Positions 7,235-26,392 of a stretch of 64,000 nt of DNA are shown here, piece after piece. The DNA comes from an uncultured Bacilli bacterium (GTDB lineage Bacteria > Bacillota_I > Bacilli_A > RF39 > UBA660). The position numbers and the translations under genes are program-made. The notes below the pieces were generated by a model. That model ran no database searches, was not told where the DNA came from, and was given only the letters and a program-made list of their open reading frames with translations. The stretch covers positions 32,692-96,691 of the forward strand of contig CAKPFG010000002.1 of assembly GCA_934153675.1 (NCBI GenBank). The letters run 5' to 3'. Position 1 is the stretch's first letter; each line of letters starts with the position of its first letter.

Positions 7235-7519
7235 CTATTTCACCTCGATTTCTTGATATGTTTTTAATATTTCATCAAATTCTTTAGATGTTTCTTTTAA
7301 ATTACATAAATAATAAATAGATGCATCTTTATTAAATGAAAATACTTCTTTATATAAATTTTCAGTAAATCTTCTATCTTTTGCATATACTGTTACCTTA
7401 TCTTTTCTAGGTATAATATGTAAATCAATACCTCTTATCAATGCTCTACCTTTAAAAATGTGTATAACTTTTTTATATAAATAATTATTAATAATCTTTT
7501 CTATTTTTCTTTCTATCAT
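7235..7519 (-). CDS. Hypothetical phage protein
   Basis: ORF. Confidence 0.4.
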   Translation of the reverse strand: MIERKIEKIINNYLYKKVIHIFKGRALIRGIDLHIIPRKDKVTVYAKDRRFTENLYKEVFSFNKDASIYYLCNLKETSKEFDEILKTYQEIEVK

Positions 7520-7678
7520 TATCTATACCTCCAATATTTTTGACATATTTCATTATCAAAAAATTCATTTAATGGCATTGTTGAACACTTATAATCAATA
7601 ATAAAATCATTCACCTCATAGATTATGAAACACACAAAGGCAAATATAAATAAAATCAATAATATTAATAATATATTT

Positions 7679-7900
7679 TTAATCTTTTTGTTCATTTTTA
7701 TCCTCCTTTGGTTTTACATAGGTAATTCCTTTATCATTCTTATCTCTTGAAGTAAATGATATTTTACATAGTTTACTTTTGGCTTTAAAATACTTTTGTT
7801 TTTCTTTAAAATCCAATTTTGCAACTTCTTCTTCTGATATGTTAGTTATTTTTAATAATTCTTGTAATTTCTTTTCTCTTTTAATAGCATCATTTATCAT
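7679..7900 (-). CDS. Hypothetical phage protein
   Basis: ORF. Confidence 0.35.
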   Translation of the reverse strand: MINDAIKREKKLQELLKITNISEEEVAKLDFKEKQKYFKAKSKLCKISFTSRDKNDKGITYVKPKEDKNEQKD

Positions 7901-8246
7901 TTTTGCTTACCTCCTCATTAATTCTTTCTATTTGTCTATCAACTTTAAATTTCATAATTTCCTTAACATCTGCATCAGAAATGTTATAGTATAATTGCAT
8001 TTGTTTTAACATCACCATTACATCTGCAATTTCTTCTTTAATAGCATCTGTAATACTAACTGCTTTTCTATTATTTAAACTAGCCATAATTGGCTCTAAT
8101 GCATTACATACAATATCAATGGGGTTTCTTTTCCTTTCTTCATATTGAATAACTGCTTCATTTAATTCAAATATTTCACTTTGAAAATACTTTAATTGTT
8201 TTTTAATTCCATAGTAATTAATTATTTTTCGTAATCTCTTATTCAT
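7890..8246 (-). CDS. Putative MazG-like nucleotide pyrophosphohydrolase
   Basis: About 118 aa with EIFELNEAV and EEIADVMVML acidic helices typical of small phage MazG-like proteins. Confidence 0.35.
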   Translation of the reverse strand: MNKRLRKIINYYGIKKQLKYFQSEIFELNEAVIQYEERKRNPIDIVCNALEPIMASLNNRKAVSITDAIKEEIADVMVMLKQMQLYYNISDADVKEIMKFKVDRQIERINEEVSKNDK

Positions 8247-8355
8247 ATAGCATAGTCCTTTCTTTTCATCTGCATAATTAAATCAATTTTAAATTTATCT
8301 TTATTATCTCTATAACAAATACCTTTATAGGTATCTAGGCTAGACATATAACCAT

Positions 8356-8631
8356 CTAAAAGAATTGTGAGGGTTCAATGTTTTCCATAATGATTTCACC
8401 TTTATAGACTCTATAAACTAATTCAATTGTTCCATAAACAAATTTAAACTCTTTTGATGCTTTTAATTCTCTACGATATATACCATCAGGAACTGATGCA
8501 TCTAATTCTTTTTTAACTTTAAATATTAATTGTTTATAGGCAATAGGACAATATATTTTTAGACTTCTTAACTTTTTATTAAAATCATTCTCATCTATAT
8601 ATAAAAGTCGCATTGTATTCCCTCCTTTCAC
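8356..8631 (-). CDS. Hypothetical phage protein
   Basis: ORF. Confidence 0.4.
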   Translation of the reverse strand: MKGGNTMRLLYIDENDFNKKLRSLKIYCPIAYKQLIFKVKKELDASVPDGIYRRELKASKEFKFVYGTIELVYRVYKGEIIMENIEPSQFF

Positions 8632-16203: not shown

Positions 16204-17034
16204 TTATTCAGAAATAATTCCATATTTTTTAAATTGTCTTGTGAAATAACTTGGTGGATTTTCACCTTCTATACTGCCCTCTATATGTTCATTTTTAACA
16301 ATTATAGTTAATGGTGTCCCTAAATTATCTGCATCAGTATATCCCATATTTTTTAAACTTGCAATTAAATCTGTTTGATCATCTGCTGACATATCAGTTA
16401 AATTTAAATAATTAATTGTTATATCATTATTTTTTGCAACTCTACTCAATACTGGTTTTACTGCAATACAATGACTACAAGTAGTTTGTCCAATAACAAT
16501 TACAGTAGGTTCTGATTTTTTTGTTAACTCTTTATATTTATCATATGTTATAAACGTTAAATCTTCTTCTGGTTTATACGTTGCATCATCACTTAAAACT
16601 TTATTTTTCTTGAAAAATTCTACAGTATTTTGTCCATCCATATATCCAACATTAACATCAATAACTTCGTCATTTTTTACAACGGCAATTGTTGGCGTTG
16701 AACCCTCAACATCAAGAACCCTTAAAATTTCTTTTTTATCATCTGATGAAAGCTTTGTAGCATCAATATATAAATAATCAAGATTATAATCTTTTTTTAT
16801 CTGTTTCATTATAGGAGTTTGTAACTCACAATAACTACAAGATGAACTACCATAGTATATAACAGTTTCATCCTTACTACCCATACTTTTATAAAAACTA
16901 TCTAATATCTCAGTTGATTCTTTAGTACTTTTTTTACTTTTATTATTAGATGTAATAAATCCCATTATTAAAGCAATCAAAGCAAGAAGGGCAACTGTAA
17001 TTATTCCTATTGTTTGAATATTAATTTTCTTCAT
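16204..17034 (-). CDS. Membrane-anchored tandem thioredoxin-fold thiol-disulfide oxidoreductase
   Basis: N-terminal TM, two CxxC active sites (CSYC, CSHC). Confidence 0.65.
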   Translation of the reverse strand: MKKINIQTIGIITVALLALIALIMGFITSNNKSKKSTKESTEILDSFYKSMGSKDETVIYYGSSSCSYCELQTPIMKQIKKDYNLDYLYIDATKLSSDDKKEILRVLDVEGSTPTIAVVKNDEVIDVNVGYMDGQNTVEFFKKNKVLSDDATYKPEEDLTFITYDKYKELTKKSEPTVIVIGQTTCSHCIAVKPVLSRVAKNNDITINYLNLTDMSADDQTDLIASLKNMGYTDADNLGTPLTIIVKNEHIEGSIEGENPPSYFTRQFKKYGIISE

Positions 17035-17696: not shown

Positions 17697-19898
17697 TTAT
17701 TTCTCCTTCCATTTTTTTAATCTTAAAGCGTTTATTATAACAGTAAAACTAGATAATGTCATAGCAAAACCTGCTATCATCGGATTCATTGAAATATTAA
17801 TAAATTCTAAAAGCCCACATGCGATTGGAATTATACAAATATTATAAAAAAATGCAAAAAATAAATTACCTTTTATATTACTTAGTGTTTTTTTGCTTAT
17901 AACAAACAAATTATATATTGCATTCAAATCATTTTTCATTAATATAACATCAGCAGAATCAGCTGCTATATCAATAGCAGAATTTAAACTTACTCCTATA
18001 TCTGCAAAAGACAAACTTGGAGCATCATTTATTCCATCTCCAACCATCATAACTTTTAACCCTTTATCCTTTAATTCTTTAATTTTATTTGATTTTTCTT
18101 TAGGAGAAACGCTTGCTATTACTTCTTTAATGTCAATACTTTTAGCAATTATATTAGCAGTAATTCTATTATCTCCTGTAAGCATAATAACTCTCTTGTT
18201 TAGATGTTTTAATTTACTTATAACATCAGTTGCATTATCTCTAATAATATCTTTTACACCAATAAGTGCGATTACTTTTTTATTTTCTATAACATATACA
18301 ATACTATTACCATCCAAAGACAATTCTTTTTCTTCTTTAGAGACTTTATTATCTATATTATACTTCTCAAGCATTTTATTATTTCCTATTAAATATTCTT
18401 TTTCGTTAATAACACCTTTCAATCCAATCCCCACTATATTTTTAAATTCACTAACACTTAATTTTTTCAAATTATTTTCATTAGCATAATTTTCAAAAGC
18501 ACTAGCAATAGGATGTGTTGATTTACTTTCTAATGACGAAACAAGTTCTATCAAATCATTATCTGAATAAACAGAGCTATTTATTATTTTTGATATTCTT
18601 AAATTACCATAAGTTAATGTACCTGTTTTATCAAACACTATTACATCAATTTTATTTGCATTTTCAAATATTTCAGATTGCTTTACTAAGATGCCATTTT
18701 TAGCACATATTCCTTCACTTACTACTATGGTAAGTGGCGTTGCCAGACCTAATGCACAAGGGCAAGCACAAACAAGTACAGTTACAAAATAAACAATTGC
18801 TTCACTAAAACTAAATCCTAAAATTAAATGAATAACGAGGGCTATAACTGCTAAAATAATAACGATTGGAACAAATATTCCACTTACTTTATCTGCAATT
18901 CTTGCAATTGGTGCTTTTGTATTTATAGCTTCAACTACCAATCTTACTATTTCCGATATTGTTGAATTCTTACCTATATTTTCTGCTTTATACAAAACTT
19001 CGCCCTCTAAATTTATTGAACCTGCAACTACCTTATCATTTATATTTTTTCTAACAGGGGCTGATTCACCATTTATAAATGATTCATCTACGTATGAAAA
19101 ACCTTTTACAATAGTTCCATCCACAGCAAATCTATTCCCCGGTTTAACAATTAAAACATCCCCTTTTTTAACTTCATCAATAGAAACTTCCTTTTCTTTA
19201 TTATTAACAAATAATATTGCCGATGTTGGAGTAATAGTTACTAACCCTTTTATAGCCTCTTTAGTTTTTTCTTTACTAATACCATCTATATATCTACCAA
19301 ATTTAATCAAATAAAGAATAACACAAACACTTTCAAAATATAAACTTTCTACACATTTATTATTTCCTTTTAATATCATAATTATATTAAATAAACTAAA
19401 TCCAAAACTTGAAATAACTCCTAATGTAACTAATGTATCCATATTAAGAGATTTATATTTAATATTTTTAATACCATTAATAATAATATCTTTTCCAAAC
19501 CATATAAAATATAGACTAAATATAAATAAACATAATGAATAATTTACTGGATAATTTATCTTGTGCAAAAAAGGAATTACAGGTAAATGTAACATATATG
19601 ACATTGAAATATATAAAACTAATAAAACTAGTAAGCCATTAAATATAAAATAAATATTTTTATTAGTATCACCATTTCCTTGTTCGTCATAAATCCCCAA
19701 TGATTTAAATCCTGCTTCACTTACAAATCTATTCAAGTCATCTATGTTAATATTATCATCATAACTGATACTTGCTGATGACATTACTAAATTTACTAAA
19801 GCATCATTTATACCTTTTTGTTTTAAAAGATATTTTTCTAAACTTGACGAACAAGCACTGCAAGTCATACCATCTATTTTTAAAATTATCTTCTTCAT
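17697..19898 (-). CDS. copA: Copper-translocating P1B-type ATPase
   Basis: GMTCSACS HMA domain, CPC, DKTGTLT, GDGINDAP. Confidence 0.9.
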   Translation of the reverse strand: MKKIILKIDGMTCSACSSSLEKYLLKQKGINDALVNLVMSSASISYDDNINIDDLNRFVSEAGFKSLGIYDEQGNGDTNKNIYFIFNGLLVLLVLYISMSYMLHLPVIPFLHKINYPVNYSLCLFIFSLYFIWFGKDIIINGIKNIKYKSLNMDTLVTLGVISSFGFSLFNIIMILKGNNKCVESLYFESVCVILYLIKFGRYIDGISKEKTKEAIKGLVTITPTSAILFVNNKEKEVSIDEVKKGDVLIVKPGNRFAVDGTIVKGFSYVDESFINGESAPVRKNINDKVVAGSINLEGEVLYKAENIGKNSTISEIVRLVVEAINTKAPIARIADKVSGIFVPIVIILAVIALVIHLILGFSFSEAIVYFVTVLVCACPCALGLATPLTIVVSEGICAKNGILVKQSEIFENANKIDVIVFDKTGTLTYGNLRISKIINSSVYSDNDLIELVSSLESKSTHPIASAFENYANENNLKKLSVSEFKNIVGIGLKGVINEKEYLIGNNKMLEKYNIDNKVSKEEKELSLDGNSIVYVIENKKVIALIGVKDIIRDNATDVISKLKHLNKRVIMLTGDNRITANIIAKSIDIKEVIASVSPKEKSNKIKELKDKGLKVMMVGDGINDAPSLSFADIGVSLNSAIDIAADSADVILMKNDLNAIYNLFVISKKTLSNIKGNLFFAFFYNICIIPIACGLLEFINISMNPMIAGFAMTLSSFTVIINALRLKKWKEK

Positions 19899-20048
19899 TT
19901 TTTCACCTCAAAATATTTCATTATCTAGATAATATACAATCAAACAGATTCATATCACTTCTCATATAATATTAGTATATCACAAATAATACGGTATTTA
20001 TAATTCAAAAAAAGTTTTTATAATGATTGAGTTTTAACTTCTATATTA

Positions 20049-20075
20049 AAAAAAATCATAGAACAATCTATGATT
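20049..20075 (-). terminator. Bidirectional rho-independent terminator ending the sipW-type operon
   Basis: atcatagaacaatctatgat perfect hairpin flanked by A/T runs. Confidence 0.65.
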
Positions 20076-21389
20076 TTAATCGATAAAAGTTATTTTAGCA
20101 TAACCATTACCTTGTTTTGCACAATTTGCTGTTGGAGTTGCACTCGTACATGTTGTGGAAATGGTTTTTGTAGATATCTCATTAGATTTTTGACAGTTAT
20201 AACAATACATAGTTTTATTAGTTAGAAGAGGATTTCCTATGTATCCTGAACCACCTCCGCCACCTCGATAATCTGTTTTAGCAGTTCCTCCATAGAAACC
20301 GCCTCCACCAGCAAAGGTACCATTTGTTTGTCCTTGTCCAAAGGCATAACCATTTGTTTGTGTTCCACCTTGTCCTCCAGTATTTTCGTTTATTGAGCCT
20401 TCTGATGTTCCAGCATTTCCTGAAATTCCACCTCCAGAACCCCCAAAACCATAATAAGTTCCATATGAGACTGCAAGATAACCAGCTGGGCCACCTCCAC
20501 CAGATACAATTAAAATATCATCTTTGTTATTTTCAAGTGATGAAAGAATACCACTAATTTTAGCAATATGAGTTGCTCCTCCACCGCCTCCACTATAAAC
20601 TATAGTAGTTCCAGCTGATGCAGAACCACCTCCATTGTAACCACCATCTGCTTTTTGAGCTGGATTCAAATTATTTTCTCCTTGACCACCAACATTTAAA
20701 TATAATTGTGCATCTACATTTAAATCTATTTCGCCTACAGAGTATCCTCCATAACCAGATAAAATATCTGAAGATTTAGCATAGCCTCCTTGAGCTCCCC
20801 ATGTTTCTAATTTATATCTTCCATTGTAAGGAACTGTGAATGTTTGTTCTCCACCAGTATAAGCATATAACCATTCTGTTTGTTTTACTTTTTTAAAGAC
20901 ATATTGTAACACTACAGCTGTATCTTGGTTTGGTGTATTAGTTGTAAATACTATTTTTAGTTTCTTTACTGTATTACTTGGTATTATATCTCCAACACTT
21001 ATATCTTGAATTTCATATTTTATATTTTTATTTGAGTAACTATCTTCTAGTATATCACTTAAGTAATATCTAGAATTTGAATCATTTGTTATTTCTATTT
21101 CATATGTTAGTTTAGAATTACTATCAGGTAGTGTTACAAATGTACTAGTAGTATCTTTGGTATATTTGTTATTATATGTTTCGTAACCTTTGTTTTCAGA
21201 TGATAAGACTTTTATATTGGTTACTCTTATATCTGTTTCTACTTTTACATATGCTTCTCCACTTATTGATAATTCTGTATTTAGGGCTGCATATCCATAT
21301 GAGGTAAATATTATTGCTATTACTACGGCTAGATATAAAAAAGGAATCTTTGATTTAAAGGTTCCTTTCCCTGATTTTATTGGTTTCAT
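20076..21389 (-). CDS. Large secreted glycine-rich protein with SipW-cognate-like signal region and Cys-rich C-terminus
   Basis: N-terminal TM + AALNTELSISGEA; TasA/Ig-like N domain; about 200-aa GG-rich region; C-terminal CYNCQ...C...C. Confidence 0.55.
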   Translation of the reverse strand: MKPIKSGKGTFKSKIPFLYLAVVIAIIFTSYGYAALNTELSISGEAYVKVETDIRVTNIKVLSSENKGYETYNNKYTKDTTSTFVTLPDSNSKLTYEIEITNDSNSRYYLSDILEDSYSNKNIKYEIQDISVGDIIPSNTVKKLKIVFTTNTPNQDTAVVLQYVFKKVKQTEWLYAYTGGEQTFTVPYNGRYKLETWGAQGGYAKSSDILSGYGGYSVGEIDLNVDAQLYLNVGGQGENNLNPAQKADGGYNGGGSASAGTTIVYSGGGGGATHIAKISGILSSLENNKDDILIVSGGGGPAGYLAVSYGTYYGFGGSGGGISGNAGTSEGSINENTGGQGGTQTNGYAFGQGQTNGTFAGGGGFYGGTAKTDYRGGGGGSGYIGNPLLTNKTMYCYNCQKSNEISTKTISTTCTSATPTANCAKQGNGYAKITFID

Positions 21390-22501
21390 TAAAATTCACC
21401 TTTTTTATGAGTTAATGTTAATCTTTCTTGGTATGCTCTTGTAAGTGTAAATCTATATGTTGCCTTAGATCCATTTAAGACAAAATATGCTTTATTACCA
21501 GGTTCTACTTCATAGAATAATATTGGTGTTTGTTCTATTTTTTGAGCATCTATTAATTCTTCAAATGTTTCAACTCTTATTAAGTTTTCACTTTCTCTAA
21601 AATCACTCTTTGCTTTTACTATATATGTATCATAATTTTTAAGTATTTTATATAAAGCATTTTCATATGGATCATTTGAATATCTTGATAAGTAAACACA
21701 TATAGAAATTATTATTCCAGATAAACCTAATATTGATAATAATGCTCCAGATATTAATAAGATAATATTACCTATTTCTATTTTTTCTGTATATGCTAAT
21801 GCTTTACTATTATTTATATCACTAGCAGTCAGTACTATATCTACTGTTTGTTCTGATAATGGTATTCTTATTTTTAAATTATTATTACTTGCTATTTTTT
21901 CAGTTGTTTTATCATAATCTCCATCAACACTTATTATCATCTTTAATTCTAAATAAGCATTTGATGTTAAACCATAATCTCTTCTAAATGAATTAGCATA
22001 GTTATTATATTTATCATAATCTATATCTATATCTTCATTAATAATAAAGTTATTATCACTAACTTTTTTTGCTGTTTCGTTTAGTAATACTTCATCTTTT
22101 GAATATAATACTTTTTTATCATCTGTTTTATCTGTTATTTTTAATGTTCCAACTATTTTATATTTATAGTTATAATTAACATTATCTGTTGAATGCATTT
22201 CATACTTAAAATCAACATTTATTGTATTTATTAAGGATGCTATATATTGCATATTTTTACCTAAGAATTTATCTTCATAGTAATTATTTTCTTTTAAATA
22301 TACTTTATAATCTATATTTCCTTTTTCATTATAAGATAATACTGCTTTATTATCTTTTTTTAATGAACTAAAAATACATAATGCTCCGAATGCTATTAGT
22401 ATTATAGATGGTATTACTAATAATAAAACCATTTTCTTTACATTTAATCTTTTCTTTTTTACATGATATACTTTATCTGCTTTTTCATATCTATATTCCG
22501 C
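21389..22501 (-). CDS. Bitopic/two-TM membrane protein of the sipW-type operon
   Basis: RBS gaaggaggt before MAEYRY; TM near N-terminus and second TM about residue 250; translationally coupled to neighbours. Confidence 0.5.
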   Translation of the reverse strand, partial: AEYRYEKADKVYHVKKKRLNVKKMVLLLVIPSIILIAFGALCIFSSLKKDNKAVLSYNEKGNIDYKVYLKENNYYEDKFLGKNMQYIASLINTINVDFKYEMHSTDNVNYNYKYKIVGTLKITDKTDDKKVLYSKDEVLLNETAKKVSDNNFIINEDIDIDYDKYNNYANSFRRDYGLTSNAYLELKMIISVDGDYDKTTEKIASNNNLKIRIPLSEQTVDIVLTASDINNSKALAYTEKIEIGNIILLISGALLSILGLSGIIISICVYLSRYSNDPYENALYKILKNYDTYIVKAKSDFRESENLIRVETFEELIDAQKIEQTPILFYEVEPGNKAYFVLNGSKATYRFTLTRAYQERLTLTHKKGEF

Positions 22502-22505
22502 CATT

Positions 22506-23669
22506 TTAATTACCTCCTTCAAATAGCCTATTTAACCACACTGTTGGATATCCTACTAATGCTATTTTAAATCTTACCTTTCCTATTACATCTTTTTCTT
22601 GTATATCCCAACTGTCTATACTTTTGTTATTATCTCCTTTAGTATTATAAATATATTTACCACTACTATCATCTATTTTTACTATTCTATGTAATATTAC
22701 TTTATTTTCTTTTTTATAAACTAATACATCACCTATTTTTAATTTATCATAATCTTTTGTCTTTTCTACTAATACTAAATCTCCTACTTGTATTTTAGGT
22801 TCCATTGAACCACTTCCTACTGCTAGAAAATAAAACTTAAATAATCCACTCATAAAACATACATAAACAAATAATACAACTGATAATATAACCCCTGATA
22901 CTGTTTTTAATGTTTTATGTTCTTTTTTTACTTCTTCTTTCTTTTTAGGATGAAGTATCATGTTATTTGTATAAGATATTAAATAAAGTAATAAGATAAA
23001 TGGATAAATAATGTTTAAGACACATTGTAAATAATCTGATATATTTGGTATTATTGGTAAATAATAATTTGGTATTTCCATTAATATTCTATAGATTATA
23101 TTTGTTTTATAACCATAATAGTAACAATTATATGTTAACATTATATTTTTCATTATTGATGGAAATATAACGAATGCCATTAATTCAAAAACTCCTTTAA
23201 AAGTTGTTAATGAATAAATACTATAATTTATACTAAAATCTACAAATATTAACATAAGTGTTGTAAGAATTATTATTAACTTTGATGATCTTCCTTTTTC
23301 TATAAATTGGTATCTTAATATTTCCGATATTATTATAATGGATAAGGTTGGAATTACTATTTTAAATAGGTGTTGTGTTCCTAATTTATAACTACTACTT
23401 AAAAAGCCTGATTTTGAACCAAAAAATACAAATGATAAAGATAGATATAAAAGAGTAAAGACTATAATTGAAAGCATAATACTTTTTTCATTTGAACTTC
23501 TATTTTTGGTATATCCTAATAGCATTATTGATAAAATAAATGCTATTATTAATGAAATTAAACATCCATATTCTTTAATCTTGAAAATATCAAATACAAA
23601 GCTTTCTAGGATCAATAATACTATTGTAGTTATAATTATACCTAATATTCTTTTTGTACTACTTTTCAT
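22506..23669 (-). CDS. sipW: SipW-type (ER/archaeal-type) signal peptidase I fused to an about 270-aa polytopic N-terminal membrane domain
   Basis: C-terminal AVGSGSMEP ... ILHRIVK ... GDNN S26 Ser/His motifs; about 8 predicted TM helices N-terminal; 387 aa vs about 190 for canonical SipW. Confidence 0.7.
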   Translation of the reverse strand: MKSSTKRILGIIITTIVLLILESFVFDIFKIKEYGCLISLIIAFILSIMLLGYTKNRSSNEKSIMLSIIVFTLLYLSLSFVFFGSKSGFLSSSYKLGTQHLFKIVIPTLSIIIISEILRYQFIEKGRSSKLIIILTTLMLIFVDFSINYSIYSLTTFKGVFELMAFVIFPSIMKNIMLTYNCYYYGYKTNIIYRILMEIPNYYLPIIPNISDYLQCVLNIIYPFILLLYLISYTNNMILHPKKKEEVKKEHKTLKTVSGVILSVVLFVYVCFMSGLFKFYFLAVGSGSMEPKIQVGDLVLVEKTKDYDKLKIGDVLVYKKENKVILHRIVKIDDSSGKYIYNTKGDNNKSIDSWDIQEKDVIGKVRFKIALVGYPTVWLNRLFEGGN

Positions 23670-23735
23670 ATTAAATCTCCTTTCTCTTTGTATTTCATAT
23701 TTTCAGTTAAAGAAAAACTTTAACTGATTTTTTTA

Positions 23736-24320
23736 TTAGTTTTGTGAGTATACTACTGTTGTTTCTAGATTACTTATAGCAACATCATCTGTTGGTAATT
23801 CACTTGCTACAGTATCTGCACTATAAGTTAATGTTAATTTTAAGTTCTTAGTTTCTTTTGAATCTAATGTATCATTTTCTGCAATTGGACTTCCATCTGC
23901 ATATGTTAATGTATATGATAAGTTTTTACATACATTTGAAGCATCTATAGTTGCATTTGCTCCATTACCAGTACATGTTGGTGTAGGAATTACTATTGAT
24001 GATACTTTTGCATTAAATGTTCCTTCATTTGTAACATCAAATGTATAAGTTATACTATCACCAGGTGCTGTAAATGTAACATTATAATCTCCTATATGTG
24101 TATCTTCATTTGAAAGTGTTGGTGCTGTAACCTCTTGTGCTTGTCCTGTTAATGTTGCTGTTGATAGATTAGCAAATTTAATTTTCCAAGATGATGCTTT
24201 AACTTTACCAGATCCGTTTATTGTAAGATTTGTTGAAAAAGCGGCAAAACCAACTCCTACAACTACTATAAGGGCAATTACTCCAACTGCCATAATTACT
24301 TTAAAATTTTTATTATTCAT
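23736..24320 (-). CDS. TasA/camelysin-like secreted protein with SipW-cognate-type signal peptide (paralog 2)
   Basis: Strong RBS aaaggagga; signal peptide then AAFSTNLTINGSGKV; two conserved Cys; C-terminal VVYSQN. Confidence 0.6.
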   Translation of the reverse strand: MNNKNFKVIMAVGVIALIVVVGVGFAAFSTNLTINGSGKVKASSWKIKFANLSTATLTGQAQEVTAPTLSNEDTHIGDYNVTFTAPGDSITYTFDVTNEGTFNAKVSSIVIPTPTCTGNGANATIDASNVCKNLSYTLTYADGSPIAENDTLDSKETKNLKLTLTYSADTVASELPTDDVAISNLETTVVYSQN

Positions 24321-24339
24321 ACTTATTCCTCCTTTTATA

Positions 24340-24885
24340 TTACCTTTGTGAATAAACAGCGGCAATACTTAAATTACTTACATCTACTTCGTTTAATGGT
24401 AGTTGACTACCAGTATACGATAATTTTAACATTAATTGTTTTTTCTCTTTTGAATTTAAAACATCTCCAACTTTTATTTTGGTTCCATCTTGGTACATCA
24501 ATTCATATTTTATGTTTTTGCATACTAACTCAGCATCTTCTTTTCCTTGTTCTCCACTTCCACTGCATATAGGTGTTGCTATTTGAATAGAACTTAATTC
24601 AGCATTCAAACCTCCATCATTTACTACCTCAAATAAGTAAGAAATAGAATCATTAGGATTTTGTAATTTAACATTTAAATTGACAATGCTAGTTGATTTA
24701 TCAGCAATATATGGTTTAGATATTTCTATTGTATTTCCATTTATTACTGGATCATTTAGATTTGCAAAGTGGATGTCCCAATTTGCAGACCCCATCTTCA
24801 TTTTCCCCCTTATGTCTAAAGATGTAGAAACCATCGCAAATGATATAGGAATTGATACTAACATTAATATCATGGCACAAACCAT
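24340..24885 (-). CDS. TasA/camelysin-like secreted protein with SipW-cognate-type signal peptide (paralog 1; start uncertain)
   Basis: Signal peptide then FAMVSTSLDIRGKM; same conserved blocks as paralog 2 (WxIxFANL, TPxCxGxG, CKN, VYSQ). Confidence 0.55.
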   Translation of the reverse strand: MVCAMILMLVSIPISFAMVSTSLDIRGKMKMGSANWDIHFANLNDPVINGNTIEISKPYIADKSTSIVNLNVKLQNPNDSISYLFEVVNDGGLNAELSSIQIATPICSGSGEQGKEDAELVCKNIKYELMYQDGTKIKVGDVLNSKEKKQLMLKLSYTGSQLPLNEVDVSNLSIAAVYSQR

Positions 24886-25093
24886 TATCACTTTTTGATT
24901 TTTCAATATATCACCACACTTTCTAGAATAACCATAAAGCACTTATTATTTTTATGTTATCCTATTATCATTAGTATACCATATAATTTCATTTTTTTTA
25001 CAATTTTTTGATTTTTTCCAGTGAAAAAGAGTAAATTTTCTTTGCAAAGAAATTTGATATAATTACTACATAATAAAAAGGTGGTATGAAGTA

Positions 25094-25438
25094 ATGAATA
25101 GAAAAGAAAGAAGAACTTTAAAAAAAGATAAGGATTTGGTAAAGGAATTATATTCTATTATTAATAAATATCTTCCTAAATTATTTGATATGTTTGAGGG
25201 CTTGACTGATTCTAGAAATCAAAGTTATGTTACTTATAAAACGAAAACTATCTGTGTAACTAGACTATTCAGTCTTCTTTGTGGCTTAACTACTATGACT
25301 GATATTTCTTTTGATGACTTTAACTCTGATAATTGTATAAAGAATTTATCCAACATATGCAATCAAGATTTAGAAGAGATTCCTTATTGGAAAACTATTC
25401 AGGATGTATTTGTAAAAATCAAAACATATGAATTCTGA
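25094..25438 (+). pseudogene. Transposase N-terminal fragment (ISAs1/IS4-like DDE_Tnp_1-associated domain), truncated
   Basis: FEGLTDSRNQSYVTYKTKTICVTRLFSLLCGLTTMTDIS resembles H-repeat/ISAs1 N-terminal domain; no DDE domain follows. Confidence 0.4.
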
Positions 25439-25544: not shown

Positions 25545-26027
25545 CTATATTTTCTTTATCATCGTTTCCATTCTTGTATGATAATTTTTCTCATTATAAA
25601 AACTCTTACCTATTTCATTATAGGCAAAAACATCAACTATTACATATTCACATCCAACGGATTTAAAATATTCTTCCATTTTATTTATTAGTTGTTGTCC
25701 TATACCTTTACTTCTAATTTTGTTTGTAACTATTAATTCTGTAATTTCTCCCCTTTTAGGACATTTATAATCTAAATAATCATATTCATCATAAGGAAAT
25801 ATGCAACCCATAATTAAACCAATTGCCTTATTATTTTCTACTGCTAAATAACATTTACCATTGTTCTTATTAACTTCTTCTAAATCTATAATTGCCATTT
25901 TTTCTCGATATTCAGAATGAACTTGATCCAAATGATCTTTATCTATTGATACGATATATTTCTCAAGTTCAACTAATAAGTCTTTAACATCTTCTAGATA
26001 TTTATCTTGATATTCTATTATTTTCAT
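25545..26027 (-). CDS. GNAT family N-acetyltransferase
   Basis: RSKGIGQQLI ... acetyl-CoA binding motif. Confidence 0.75.
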   Translation of the reverse strand: MKIIEYQDKYLEDVKDLLVELEKYIVSIDKDHLDQVHSEYREKMAIIDLEEVNKNNGKCYLAVENNKAIGLIMGCIFPYDEYDYLDYKCPKRGEITELIVTNKIRSKGIGQQLINKMEEYFKSVGCEYVIVDVFAYNEIGKSFYNEKNYHTRMETMIKKI

Positions 26028-26392
26028 TTTTTAATCACCTCAAATACTTCAAATATAACTCTTGTGTTTTCATTAAAATTAGGATCTAATTTTTTAAAAT
26101 AATTTGTATGACTTTCTTTCCATTCGTTTAACGATTTATTCTCACCCTCAAATTTTGCTAAATTCCATGTAATATTTTTAAATTCAGTAACAATAACATT
26201 ACTTGTTTTTATAAAGCATACATTGTTATCTTTTGTATCTGTCATTATTGATATATCTCCAACCTCTGAAATATTATCTAGATCATATAATGATGTAGTA
26301 GCTATCTTTTTACCATCTAACACAAGATTAACTAATCTATCTACATCAATTTCAAAAATCCATCTATCAGGTTCATTTAATAGCACTATCAT
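26024..26392 (-). CDS. ASCH-domain protein
   Basis: GKKIATT ... EWK ... FEVFEVI pattern. Confidence 0.5.
   Translation of the reverse strand: MIVLLNEPDRWIFEIDVDRLVNLVLDGKKIATTSLYDLDNISEVGDISIMTDTKDNNVCFIKTSNVIVTEFKNITWNLAKFEGENKSLNEWKESHTNYFKKLDPNFNENTRVIFEVFEVIKK

Follow-up and report, generated by a model that had tools for sequence, protein, structure and literature searches.

A putative chaperone- and usher-free fibre operon with a dedicated ER-type signal peptidase in an uncultured Bacilli bacterium

Results

Layout and conservation of the cassette

Five open reading frames, all on the minus strand, occupy positions 20076-24942 of the window, by which we mean the whole 64,000-nt stretch of DNA from an uncultured Bacilli bacterium that was analyzed. 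Their coordinates were confirmed and bear out the five-gene operon proposed in the initial annotation; the genes are genuine and are conserved together as a single cassette. The flanks are also as described there, with CopA at 17697-19898 on one side and a 114-aa DDE_Tnp_1_assoc transposase fragment at 25094-25438 on the other. Ahead of the first gene, a promoter-like site can be read from the sequence at 24973..25003 (minus strand), comprising TTGTAA, a 19-nt spacer and an extended -10, TGgTATACT; it is a consensus match only, with a long spacer, and was not listed by the program scan. At the distal end, an intrinsic terminator (20044..20077, minus strand) begins at the stop codon of gene E, where the hairpin AAAAUCAUAGA/UCUAUGAUUUU, with a stem of 11 bp, has a U run behind it; the folding energy of the 51-nt stretch is -12.4 kcal/mol (z -3.9). 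This terminator had been called strong, and although the hairpin and U run are present, the adjective is generous for a stem that is AT-rich. It escaped the consensus scan, which demands 3 G-C pairs.

The five-gene unit is kept in relatives. The order of pilin gene or genes, fused peptidase and DUF5305 gene is preserved in nearly all of 54 related loci, the few exceptions being short or contig-end loci, and a large pilin-headed protein comes next in about half of them. The cassette is common to metagenome-assembled genomes of Bacilli and of Saccharibacteria (L028 and others).

Subunits A and B

Gene A (24340..24906, minus strand; 188 aa) most likely starts at the TTG at 24906, judging from the GGTGA ahead of it, the open frame itself reaching 24942. 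Gene B (23736..24320, minus strand; 194 aa) starts at the ATG at 24320, with a strong AGGAGG ribosome-binding site upstream. Both products have a signal anchor, with predicted cuts at ...SFA|MVSTSLDIRG in A, the proposed minor fibre subunit paralogue, and at ...GFA|AFSTNLTINGSG in B, the presumed major subunit, where AFSTNLTINGSG is the proposed donor strand and a beta-sandwich forms the core. The paralogy ascribed to these two small secreted proteins holds (43% identity, E 3e-56; A against the B-family profile, hhalign probability 100%), and A-type orthologues bearing SFA[SM][MF]ST.LDI are present in loci L003, L011 and L014. The shared N-terminal signature is likewise real: a hydrophobic helix and G/S-[FY]-A, then A-F-S-T-N-L-T-I-N-G in B, M-V-S-T-S-L-D-I-R-G in A and A-L-N-T-E-L-S-I-S-G in E. 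It recurs in nearly all of 86 distinct pilin-like open reading frames drawn from the 54 loci. The conserved Cys pair holds up as well: A has it, and in B, where it is C116 and C131, it does not vary across 36 homologues. In the AF2 model of B (pLDDT 89.9), post-anchor residues 28-46 lie unstructured beside a compact sandwich. The top Foldseek matches of this model are TasA (8aur) and AbpA (7ueg), and the best fold matches are the TasA, AbpA, thread and Tafi fibre subunits, with modest fold scores. Mature B has a pI of 4.3 and a D/E content of 10.7%. Between B and C lies an intergenic hairpin (23703..23727, minus strand) with a 10-bp stem (-11.1 kcal/mol, z -4.7) and, in the window, no U run behind it on the coding strand. 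A hairpin occupies the equivalent position in five relatives (L001, L003, L011, L012 and L014), with a U run behind it in four; the hairpin is probably an attenuator or an mRNA stabilizer.

Peptidase C, accessory protein D and large protein E

Gene C (22506..23669, minus strand) encodes a dedicated signal peptidase I of 387 aa, in which nine TM helices (residues 1-~275) precede an S26 catalytic domain (~278-387). The ER-type S26 assignment made at the outset stands: the score of C on TIGR02228, the model for archaeal/ER-type signal peptidase I, is 105 bits, above the 51.85 required, and its family profile matches SEC11A/C (E 2e-17). The Ser/His dyad is intact, with Ser288, His327 and Asp346 all in place, and S288, H327-R328 and T343-K-G-D346 do not vary among 26 homologues. 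The AF2 model of C has a pLDDT of 82.3. Structurally, the peptidase comes closest to SipA, a homologue of signal peptidases without which pili do not polymerize. The membrane part has a CPBP/CAAX-protease-like fold without the catalytic histidines; only the pair E116-x-x-R119 in helix 4 recalls CPBP motif 1, and no sequence match to PF02517 was found among 26 members of the C family. C differs from the CPBP/CAAX-protease scaffolds SpdC/LyrA of S. aureus, Rce1 and APH-1 of gamma-secretase in joining its CPBP-like domain to a signal peptidase. We found no description of such a fusion in the literature, and the CPBP-fold domain stripped of its catalytic histidines is possibly a new feature.

Gene D (21389..22504, minus strand; 371 aa) starts at the ATG at 22504, preceded by GGAGG, and overlaps gene E in TAATG. 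Its product is the two-TM membrane protein that had been proposed, with hydrophobic segments at 26-44 and 247-265, a short cytoplasmic N-terminus, an outer domain of ~200 aa and a cytoplasmic domain of ~105 aa past the second segment. It is a DUF5305-type accessory protein: PF17231 is listed for an identical protein in a precomputed annotation table, and the L003 orthologue (48% identical) scores 68 bits on that model; the window protein itself gave zero matches in local hmmscan. Gene E (20076..21389, minus strand; 437 aa) encodes a signal anchor with a predicted cut at ...GYA|ALNTELSISGEA, a B-like pilin-like domain to about residue 165-188, an ALK/LTK-type glycine-rich domain at 189-436 (PF12810, 121 bits) and 4 Cys near the C-terminus. 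The likeness of its N-terminus to the small subunits, first noted as a common signature, is upheld by profile alignment of residues 1-188 with the B family (hhalign 79.8%, E 1.5e-5, 132 columns). In many loci, large proteins in this position combine a pilin-like N-domain with different C-domains, and E is a candidate tip protein, adhesin or nucleator.

Discussion

Relation to AbpX and Tafi loci

The initial annotation offered this operon as a candidate undescribed system, which overstates its novelty, since the locus type has been outlined bioinformatically for homologues of AbpX, a Pyrodictium abyssi protein with archaeal and bacterial homologues, in a January 2026 preprint (bioRxiv 10.64898/2026.01.04.697558). 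AbpX-type loci encode a fibre subunit, a minor subunit, a tip protein, a multi-TM signal peptidase I and a DUF5305 protein, the same gene set as here, and their peptidase also has many TM helices and is of the TIGR02228 type. Sequence similarity between B and AbpX is invisible to BLASTP and phmmer; the two families align over their full length by hhalign (94.7%, E 6e-8, 156 columns), pairing GFA|AFSTNLTI with TYA|QWSETLSL and PGDSITYTFDVTNEGT with PGAEVNVTFTLENVGT. [quoted passage not shown] Moreover, both proteins are acidic, both have a Cys pair, and the unstructured segment 28-46 in the model of B has its counterpart in what is reported for monomeric AbpX. There are also clear differences. 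Of the two Cys, just one has an equivalent position in both proteins, and the D/E content is lower in B than in AbpX (14.7%). B has Thr at donor-strand position 4, where its family is variable, whereas the AbpX work deems an acidic residue in the donor strand conserved and mechanistically important; thus, from the sequence, the calcium-bridged strand site is probably absent from B. Missing from the operon are an SLH or LPXTG anchor, a sortase and c-di-GMP genes; its tip candidate bears the ALK/LTK glycine-rich domain, and it is found in uncultured gut Bacilli and Saccharibacteria. The bacterial clade of this cassette, itself uncharacterized and unannotated, is part of a bacterial branch of the TasA/AbpX fibres that has been outlined only lately.

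Genetic support for the peptidase/DUF5305 pair comes from Tafi, the Tat-fimbriae of haloarchaea, with TafA/E pilins, the signal peptidase TafD and the DUF5305 protein TafG (PMC11821415; PMC12337348); when the cognate peptidase is deleted there, neither processing nor fibres remain, and DUF5305 is found alongside such peptidases or in one polypeptide with them (PMC11821415). The present operon likewise pairs a dedicated signal peptidase with a DUF5305 protein, has several pilin-like subunits, one of them large, and is proposed to use strand donation with no chaperone or usher. It differs in lacking a twin-arginine motif, the proposed export being by Sec rather than Tat, in lacking a TafB-type regulator, and in the architecture of the peptidase: TafD has four TM helices and an N-terminal catalytic domain, whereas that of C lies behind its nine helices.

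A proposed fibre built by strand exchange, and its alternatives

We assign a probability of about 0.7 to the reading that the operon encodes a chaperone- and usher-free fibre assembled by donor-strand complementation, of the TasA superfamily and the AbpX/Tafi locus type. Most likely it builds a thin surface or matrix fibre with subunits linked by strand swapping. A, B and E would be exported by Sec and retained in the membrane by their N-terminal signal anchors until peptidase C, together with D, cuts after G/S-[FY]-A. The freed N-terminus, x-[FLV]-[SN]-T-x-L-x-I-x-G, would then serve as an amphipathic donor strand entering the open beta-sandwich groove of the next subunit, giving a head-to-tail polymer. 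B is proposed as the major subunit because it has the best ribosome-binding site and a hairpin behind the gene, and A would be a conserved minor subunit. E would join through the common strand, its glycine-rich domain acting as tip adhesin, nucleator or anchor. The membrane domain of C is most likely a scaffold that would hold the signal anchor or couple cleavage to assembly.

The most serious competitor, in our view unlikely, is that nothing polymerizes and the cassette is dedicated to processing and secreting surface or secreted proteins that remain monomers, the motif being a peptidase recognition or membrane/wall retention element. The motif lies directly behind the predicted cut and is kept across very different cargo, as a sorting signal would be; NCBIfam deems such N-termini SipW-dependent-type signal peptides, though matches to those models are weak here. 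No assembly factor is evident in the operon, nor any cell anchor (LPXTG, SLH or TapA-like), and the modest fold scores fit this reading too. Against it, the motif is in register with the experimentally resolved donor strand of AbpX, the B monomer model leaves that very segment unstructured beside the sandwich, the structures most like B are those of strand-exchange fibre subunits in particular, and major and minor subunits, a large tip protein and an attenuating hairpin are the typical layout of a pilus operon. If fibres are made, the operon could instead be a true tapA-sipW-tasA or sipW-bsaA system, making biofilm matrix in the canonical TasA or BsaA manner known from Bacillus and Clostridium perfringens; the initial annotation had drawn the comparison with those loci. 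An ER-type signal peptidase does adjoin small secreted beta-sandwich proteins, its presumptive fibre substrates, as in those loci; TasA, which polymerizes by donor-strand exchange, tops the Foldseek results, its mature A-F N-terminus and a PGD...F.F.N.G motif are in common, and sub-threshold Peptidase_M73 matches occur in 27 of the 36 family members. The membership tests, however, largely refute this equivalence, and we regard it as improbable. PF12389 reaches 13.4 bits, short of its cut-off of 22.5, and the B-family profile aligns with TasA along no more than 21 columns (probability 8.5%), so that the TasA/camelysin likeness survives at the level of fold and profile superfamily and not as family membership. 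TIGR04090 (BsaA) and TIGR04087 (TapA) fall far under their cut-offs and TIGR04088/89 under theirs. Peptidase C, at 78.9 bits against the 190 of NF046067, is no SipW equivalog; a CPBP-like membrane domain is absent from SipW. Both a DUF5305 gene and a multi-TM peptidase are missing from TasA and BsaA loci, and the present operon has no TapA-like protein. What stands is a fibre-type operon centred on an ER-type signal peptidase.

More remote still is a role in the biology of a mobile element or phage (e.g., superinfection or host contact) rather than as a chromosomal appendage. The transposase fragment directly upstream in the window, intact as a gene in L006, the tyrosine integrase directly upstream in L003, the presence of the cassette in two such different groups of hosts and the local rise in GC to 0.35 across gene E all point that way. 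Yet the neighbouring genes are housekeeping ones (copA/copZ, ribosomal proteins and tRNA synthetases), nothing of phage or conjugation type adjoins the cassette, and GC goes up just where E encodes its Gly-rich part, so that codon composition may be the cause. In any case, mobility explains distribution, not function.

In Saccharibacteria, the strand-exchange reading meets a second donor-strand fibre that needs no outer-membrane usher, the Pam pili of CPR bacteria (bioRxiv 10.64898/2026.03.03.709456). Pam relies on PapD-like chaperones anchored in the membrane, its pilins have two domains, and neither a dedicated peptidase nor a DUF5305 protein belongs to it; the cassette of L028 and others is a distinct system. 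Uncultured gut Bacilli and Saccharibacteria are hosts that a RefSeq-based survey would have missed.

Subunit affiliation and the identity of the locus

The five genes at window positions 20076 to 24942 (minus strand) constitute a divergent, uncharacterized bacterial variant of the AbpX/Tafi-type fiber locus, within the TasA superfamily. AbpX, the fiber subunit of Pyrodictium abyssi, is a TasA-superfamily protein that polymerizes by donor-strand complementation with bound calcium, and the gene content of our operon is that of the AbpX loci, which likewise feature a signal peptidase I with many transmembrane (TM) helices, a DUF5305 protein, a minor subunit and a tip protein (bioRxiv 10.64898/2026.01.04.697558). 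The Tat-fimbriae (Tafi) of haloarchaea depend on a signal peptidase, TafD, for pilin processing and for fibers (PMC11821415), and the DUF5305 protein TafG is thought to assist it (PMC11821415; PMC12337348).

The two small secreted proteins of the operon, A and B, are paralogues (43% identity, E 3e-56). In each, a single N-terminal hydrophobic helix leads into G/S-[FY]-A, behind which stands x-[FVL]-[SN]-T-x-L-x-I-x-G, and the N terminus of the large protein E has the same arrangement. A word-indexed search returned 211 homologues of B at E <= 1e-3, all of ~195 aa and unannotated; few are named, their source being "Bacilli bacterium" MAGs. Residues W45, P86-G-D88, N98-x-G100, C116 and C131 are invariant among 36 of these. 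The full family profile matched 6,797 clusters (50% identity), of which 4,094 reach E <= 1e-10; many of the matching proteins span 350 to 2,180 aa, and in these the domain is N-terminal. The family is served by neither a Pfam nor an NCBIfam model, and its annotation is "hypothetical protein" only.

The initial annotation had described the small proteins as TasA/camelysin-like, and this did not hold. On PF12389 (Peptidase_M73), B reaches 13.4 bits against a gathering cut-off of 22.5 and A has no match; sub-threshold matches to that model, on the PGD...F.V.N.G motif, occur in 27 of 36 family members (best E 3.6e-4). A scores 18.7 bits on TIGR04087 (TapA; cut-off 80), B scores 12.1 on TIGR04089 (cut-off 60), and TIGR04088, TIGR04089 or TIGR04090 (BsaA) give weak matches in only 2 to 4 of the 36. 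Searches of PDB sequences with B and its family (phmmer, hmmsearch) yielded no meaningful match. As a control, the B-family profile was aligned by hhalign with B. subtilis TasA, the sequence of which was checked against 8aur_A; the match spans 21 columns only, at 8.5% probability. With the curated models below cut-off and a TasA alignment of this length, a canonical TasA/BsaA operon is rejected.

For the comparison with AbpX, its sequence was rebuilt from the preprint supplement and found to be 100% identical to database protein P0241. BLASTP of B against AbpX gave nothing significant. The B-family profile matches the single AbpX sequence at 85% probability in hhalign, and an AbpX alignment (7 sequences, excluding the named bacterial homologues from Clostridium amylolyticum and Natronincola) at 94.7%, E 6e-8, with 156 columns aligned, virtually the whole length. 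In that alignment the cut site and the strand behind it, GFA|AFSTNLTI, pair with TYA|QWSETLSL, the core motif PGDSITYTFDVTNEGT pairs with PGAEVNVTFTLENVGT, and one of the two Cys is paired. Since the AbpX match is full length and the TasA match covers 21 columns, the family is much nearer to AbpX than to TasA.

From the perspective of predicted structure, the best matches are fiber subunits of the same superfamily. The AlphaFold2 model of B (36-sequence alignment, pLDDT 89.9) has a signal-anchor helix at 4-27, an unstructured stretch at 28-46 and then a compact beta-sandwich. Foldseek against the PDB ranked the TasA fiber 8aur (probability 1.00) and AbpA 7ueg (0.99), the bundling pilin of P. 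calidifontis, ahead of the Sulfolobus thread and Fim/Pap pilins, with modest scores and with generic sandwiches scoring alongside. Taken by itself, the model is supportive rather than decisive for a predicted TasA-superfamily fold, that is, the jelly-roll or beta-sandwich of donor-strand subunits.

The predicted cut after G/S-[FY]-A conforms to the small-x-Ala rule, and it lines up with the sites at which AbpX and TasA are cleaved. Assuming cleavage of B after G-F-A, the donor strand would be A1-F2-S3-T4-N5-L6-T7-I8, with an aromatic at position 2 as in AbpX; across the family this position is mostly F, Y or L, and it is V in A and L in E. Position 4 differs: where AbpX has its calcium-binding Glu, all three of A, B and E have Thr, and the 86 aligned relatives show a variable, non-acidic position (T, Q, R, S, N or A). 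The acidic donor-strand residue is treated as important in the AbpX preprint (bioRxiv 10.64898/2026.01.04.697558), and a variant that does without it tests whether calcium dependence is general. Mature B, acidic with a pI of 4.3, is also less rich in D/E than AbpX (10.7% versus 14.7%).

The peptidase and its membrane domain

Protein C passes TIGR02228 at 105 bits (cut-off 51.85) and scores 78.9 on the SipW equivalog NF046067, where the cut-off is 190, so that C is not a SipW equivalog. The initial annotation took loss of the Ser/His dyad, on alignment, as grounds for refutation, and no such loss is seen: both residues, S288 and H327, are invariant in 26 homologues of 350 to 400 aa, as are M289, R328, T343-K-G-D346 and D352, and in a profile alignment with human SEC11A/C (E 2e-17) these residues fall on SGSMEP, HR and TKGDNN. 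By these conserved motifs C is an ER/archaeal-type signal peptidase I (TIGR02228; MEROPS S26B) with its catalytic residues kept.

In the AlphaFold2 model of C (pLDDT 82.3), nine TM helices lead into the catalytic domain and a short helix lies at the C terminus, as against the "ten" TM helices given for the AbpX-locus peptidase in the preprint. Judged by the distribution of charges, the catalytic domain lies on the extracellular side. As modeled, the membrane domain has the CPBP membrane fold, that of the CAAX proteases. An active CPBP protease is rejected for lack of conserved histidines: residues 1-275 contain no invariant His across the 26 homologues, the only conserved positions being E116-x-x-R119, Y193 and R194, and PF02517 (CPBP/CAAX protease) has no match in any of the 26. 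Hence the domain is read, by analogy, as a putative non-catalytic scaffold comparable to SpdC, itself a non-catalytic scaffold of CPBP fold. Our literature search found no paper describing a fusion of a CPBP/CAAX fold to a signal peptidase. Neither CPBP nor CAAX is mentioned in the AbpX preprint (bioRxiv 10.64898/2026.01.04.697558), and the assignment offers a concrete, testable idea for the many membrane helices of these peptidases.

The DUF5305 partner and the large subunit

D crosses the membrane at 26-44 and 247-265 and has an outer and a cytoplasmic domain, which matches the DUF5305 layout (bioRxiv 10.64898/2026.01.04.697558). In our local hmmscan D had no match to PF17231 (DUF5305) even at E <= 10, while the identical 371-aa protein is assigned PF17231 in a precomputed table, and its orthologues in two related loci score 68 bits (L003, 48% identical) and 66 bits (L001) against a cut-off of 29. 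The local miss probably stems from filtering or composition, the protein being K/N-rich. It is the ATG-start form of D that is on record; read from a TTG start, the protein had no exact-sequence match. The DUF5305 partner in one relative, L033 (6923-9433), is 836 aa with a long extra region, and a second DUF5305 paralogue lies upstream of the cassette in L023 (1731-2861) and in L028 (2377-3450), in the latter after an extra pilin gene.

E is composite. Residues 1-188 match the B-family profile (hhalign, 79.8%, E 1.5e-5), and residues 189-436 match PF12810 (ALK/LTK glycine-rich) at 121.3 bits versus a cut-off of 24.5, over profile positions 7-243 of 243. Despite this strong Pfam match, phmmer of E against the PDB gave no ALK match, and a literature search on PF12810 and bacterial glycine-rich domains turned up nothing useful. 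The glycine-rich domain closes with four clustered Cys, CYNC...C...C (window 20076-20190, minus strand), a region with weak zinc-ribbon-like Pfam matches well below threshold.

Operon layout and transcription signals

The window is AT-rich (~26% G+C), and the five minus-strand ORFs are tightly packed. As read from the sequence, the likely gene models are these: a promoter-like TTGTAA...TGgTATACT (25003-24973, minus strand) precedes A, which starts at a TTG at 24906 behind GGTGA and encodes 188 aa. B follows from an ATG at 24320 behind AGGAGG (194 aa), C from an ATG at 23669 (387 aa), D from an ATG at 22504 behind GGAGG (371 aa) and E from an ATG at 21389 that overlaps the stop of D in TAATG (437 aa). 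An AT-rich hairpin with a U run begins at the stop codon of E on the same strand (51-nt fold, -12.4 kcal/mol, z -3.9). On one side the operon is bordered by copA/copZ, and on the other by a 114-aa DDE_Tnp_1_assoc fragment. All that the initial annotation described, from ORFs and N-terminal signature to terminator and flanks, is found here.

Between B and C lies an intergenic hairpin (23703-23727, minus strand; -11.1 kcal/mol, z -4.7). A stable hairpin in this spot, between the genes for the main pilin and the peptidase, recurs in all five relatives checked, at ~9607-9635 in L001, at ~9603-9645 in L003 and at the same position in L011, L012 and L014, with a U run next in four of the five. Conservation of position but not of sequence is what would be expected of an attenuator raising expression of the major subunit, and the arrangement, as far as sequence can tell, fits such higher expression. 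An Rfam scan of the whole window detected no riboswitch or RNA near the operon; its sole family is the S10-Clostridia ribosomal protein leader RF03136 (59364-59461, minus strand, 37 bits), which fits a Bacillota origin.

About 3 kb downstream of the operon, past copA/copZ, a membrane-anchored protein (16204-17034, minus strand) has two thioredoxin/PedC-like halves with a CxxC each (CSYC, CSHC). It could catalyze, outside the cytoplasm, disulfide formation in the fiber subunits at their invariant Cys pair.

Distribution of the cassette

The same five genes occur on several metagenome contigs with an identical C, and relatives of B occupy the same cassette in other lineages. A genome scan with a 10-sequence peptidase alignment returned 45 loci, mostly in uncultured Bacilli or "Tenericutes" MAGs (gut, rabbit, rumen), with several in Saccharibacteria, Nanosyncoccaceae or Patescibacteria, one of them (L028) on a 734-kb contig. 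Loci titled "Muribaculaceae" we suspect to be mis-binned. An iterative search over all ORFs of 54 related loci found the order pilin(s), fused peptidase, DUF5305 in nearly all, the exceptions being short or contig-end loci; the unit singled out in the initial annotation is therefore conserved, as five genes beside the identical C and as a core order more widely. About half of the 54 carry a large pilin-headed protein (~270 to 810 aa). The glycine-rich head is found only in the window's own clade (L003 to L009, L014), and the other heads are unrelated and mostly unannotated. Among the Saccharibacteria, Nanosyncoccaceae and Patescibacteria MAGs, the cassette is present in L028 (5336-9016), L010, L029, L030, L042, L044 and L053, often with a larger pilin-headed protein; the L028 subunit lacks the Cys pair.

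The adjacent transposase or integrase, together with the spread across phyla, suggests horizontal transfer of the cassette. That the cassette itself serves a mobile-element role is unlikely. The transposase-associated fragment upstream of the operon (25094-25438, plus strand) is represented in L006, from another strain, by an intact 247-aa gene (7833-8576), and by gene calls alone the window has two extra ORFs relative to that locus, at 25545-26027 (acetyltransferase-like) and 26024-26392 (122 aa). In L003, from a different lineage, a tyrosine integrase (7323-8318) lies directly upstream of the cassette.

Proposed assembly and alternative readings

In the proposed scheme, A, B and E would be exported by Sec, C together with D would cleave after G/S-[FY]-A, and the freed amphipathic strand would complete the sandwich of the next subunit. 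The major subunit would be B and the minor one A, leaving E to act as tip, nucleator or anchor. The most far-reaching reading, to which we assign a probability of roughly 0.25, is that of a distinct, calcium-independent strand-exchange pilus, horizontally spread among small-genome host-associated bacteria (uncultured gut Bacilli, Saccharibacteria). In it, the CAAX-protease-fold domain, devoid of catalytic activity and joined to the signal peptidase, would form with the DUF5305 protein a membrane assembly platform that couples signal-anchor cleavage directly to polymerization and replaces chaperone and usher. The adhesin heads on the large subunit would be interchangeable, the one here being polyglycine-rich and ALK-type. 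A processing module for monomeric, non-polymerizing surface proteins is an alternative that we regard as rather improbable.

Other pilus systems were considered and rejected. Sortase-dependent pili are at odds with the C termini of A, B and E, none of which has an LPXTG, and with the lack of a sortase among the five genes (Pfam, NCBIfam); type IV pili with the lack of a G|F-T-L-x-E leader and of an assembly ATPase or platform gene in the operon; and chaperone-usher pili with the lack of a PapD-like chaperone or an usher among the five proteins (Pfam, NCBIfam). The Pam pili of CPR bacteria have different components, and the Saccharibacteria cassette is a separate system.

Of the interpretation in the initial annotation, the fiber-type operon, the ER-type peptidase and the TasA superfamily stand, while the TasA/BsaA operon and the notion of a new kind of system do not. 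Because this kind of system has already been outlined in the literature, the locus is an extension rather than a new principle. Recognizing it broadens the range of the AbpX/Tafi locus type far past extremophiles. The surface structures of uncultured gut Bacilli and Saccharibacteria are almost unknown, and the cassette is a candidate adhesion or biofilm organelle for them. Some small genomes hold two cassettes of different subtype (L013 and L041 on OZ006981.1, 1.31 Mb; L012 and L037 on CALVZC010000006.1), the pilin being ~196 aa in one and ~171 aa in the other; both cassettes come with a fused peptidase and a DUF5305 gene of their own.
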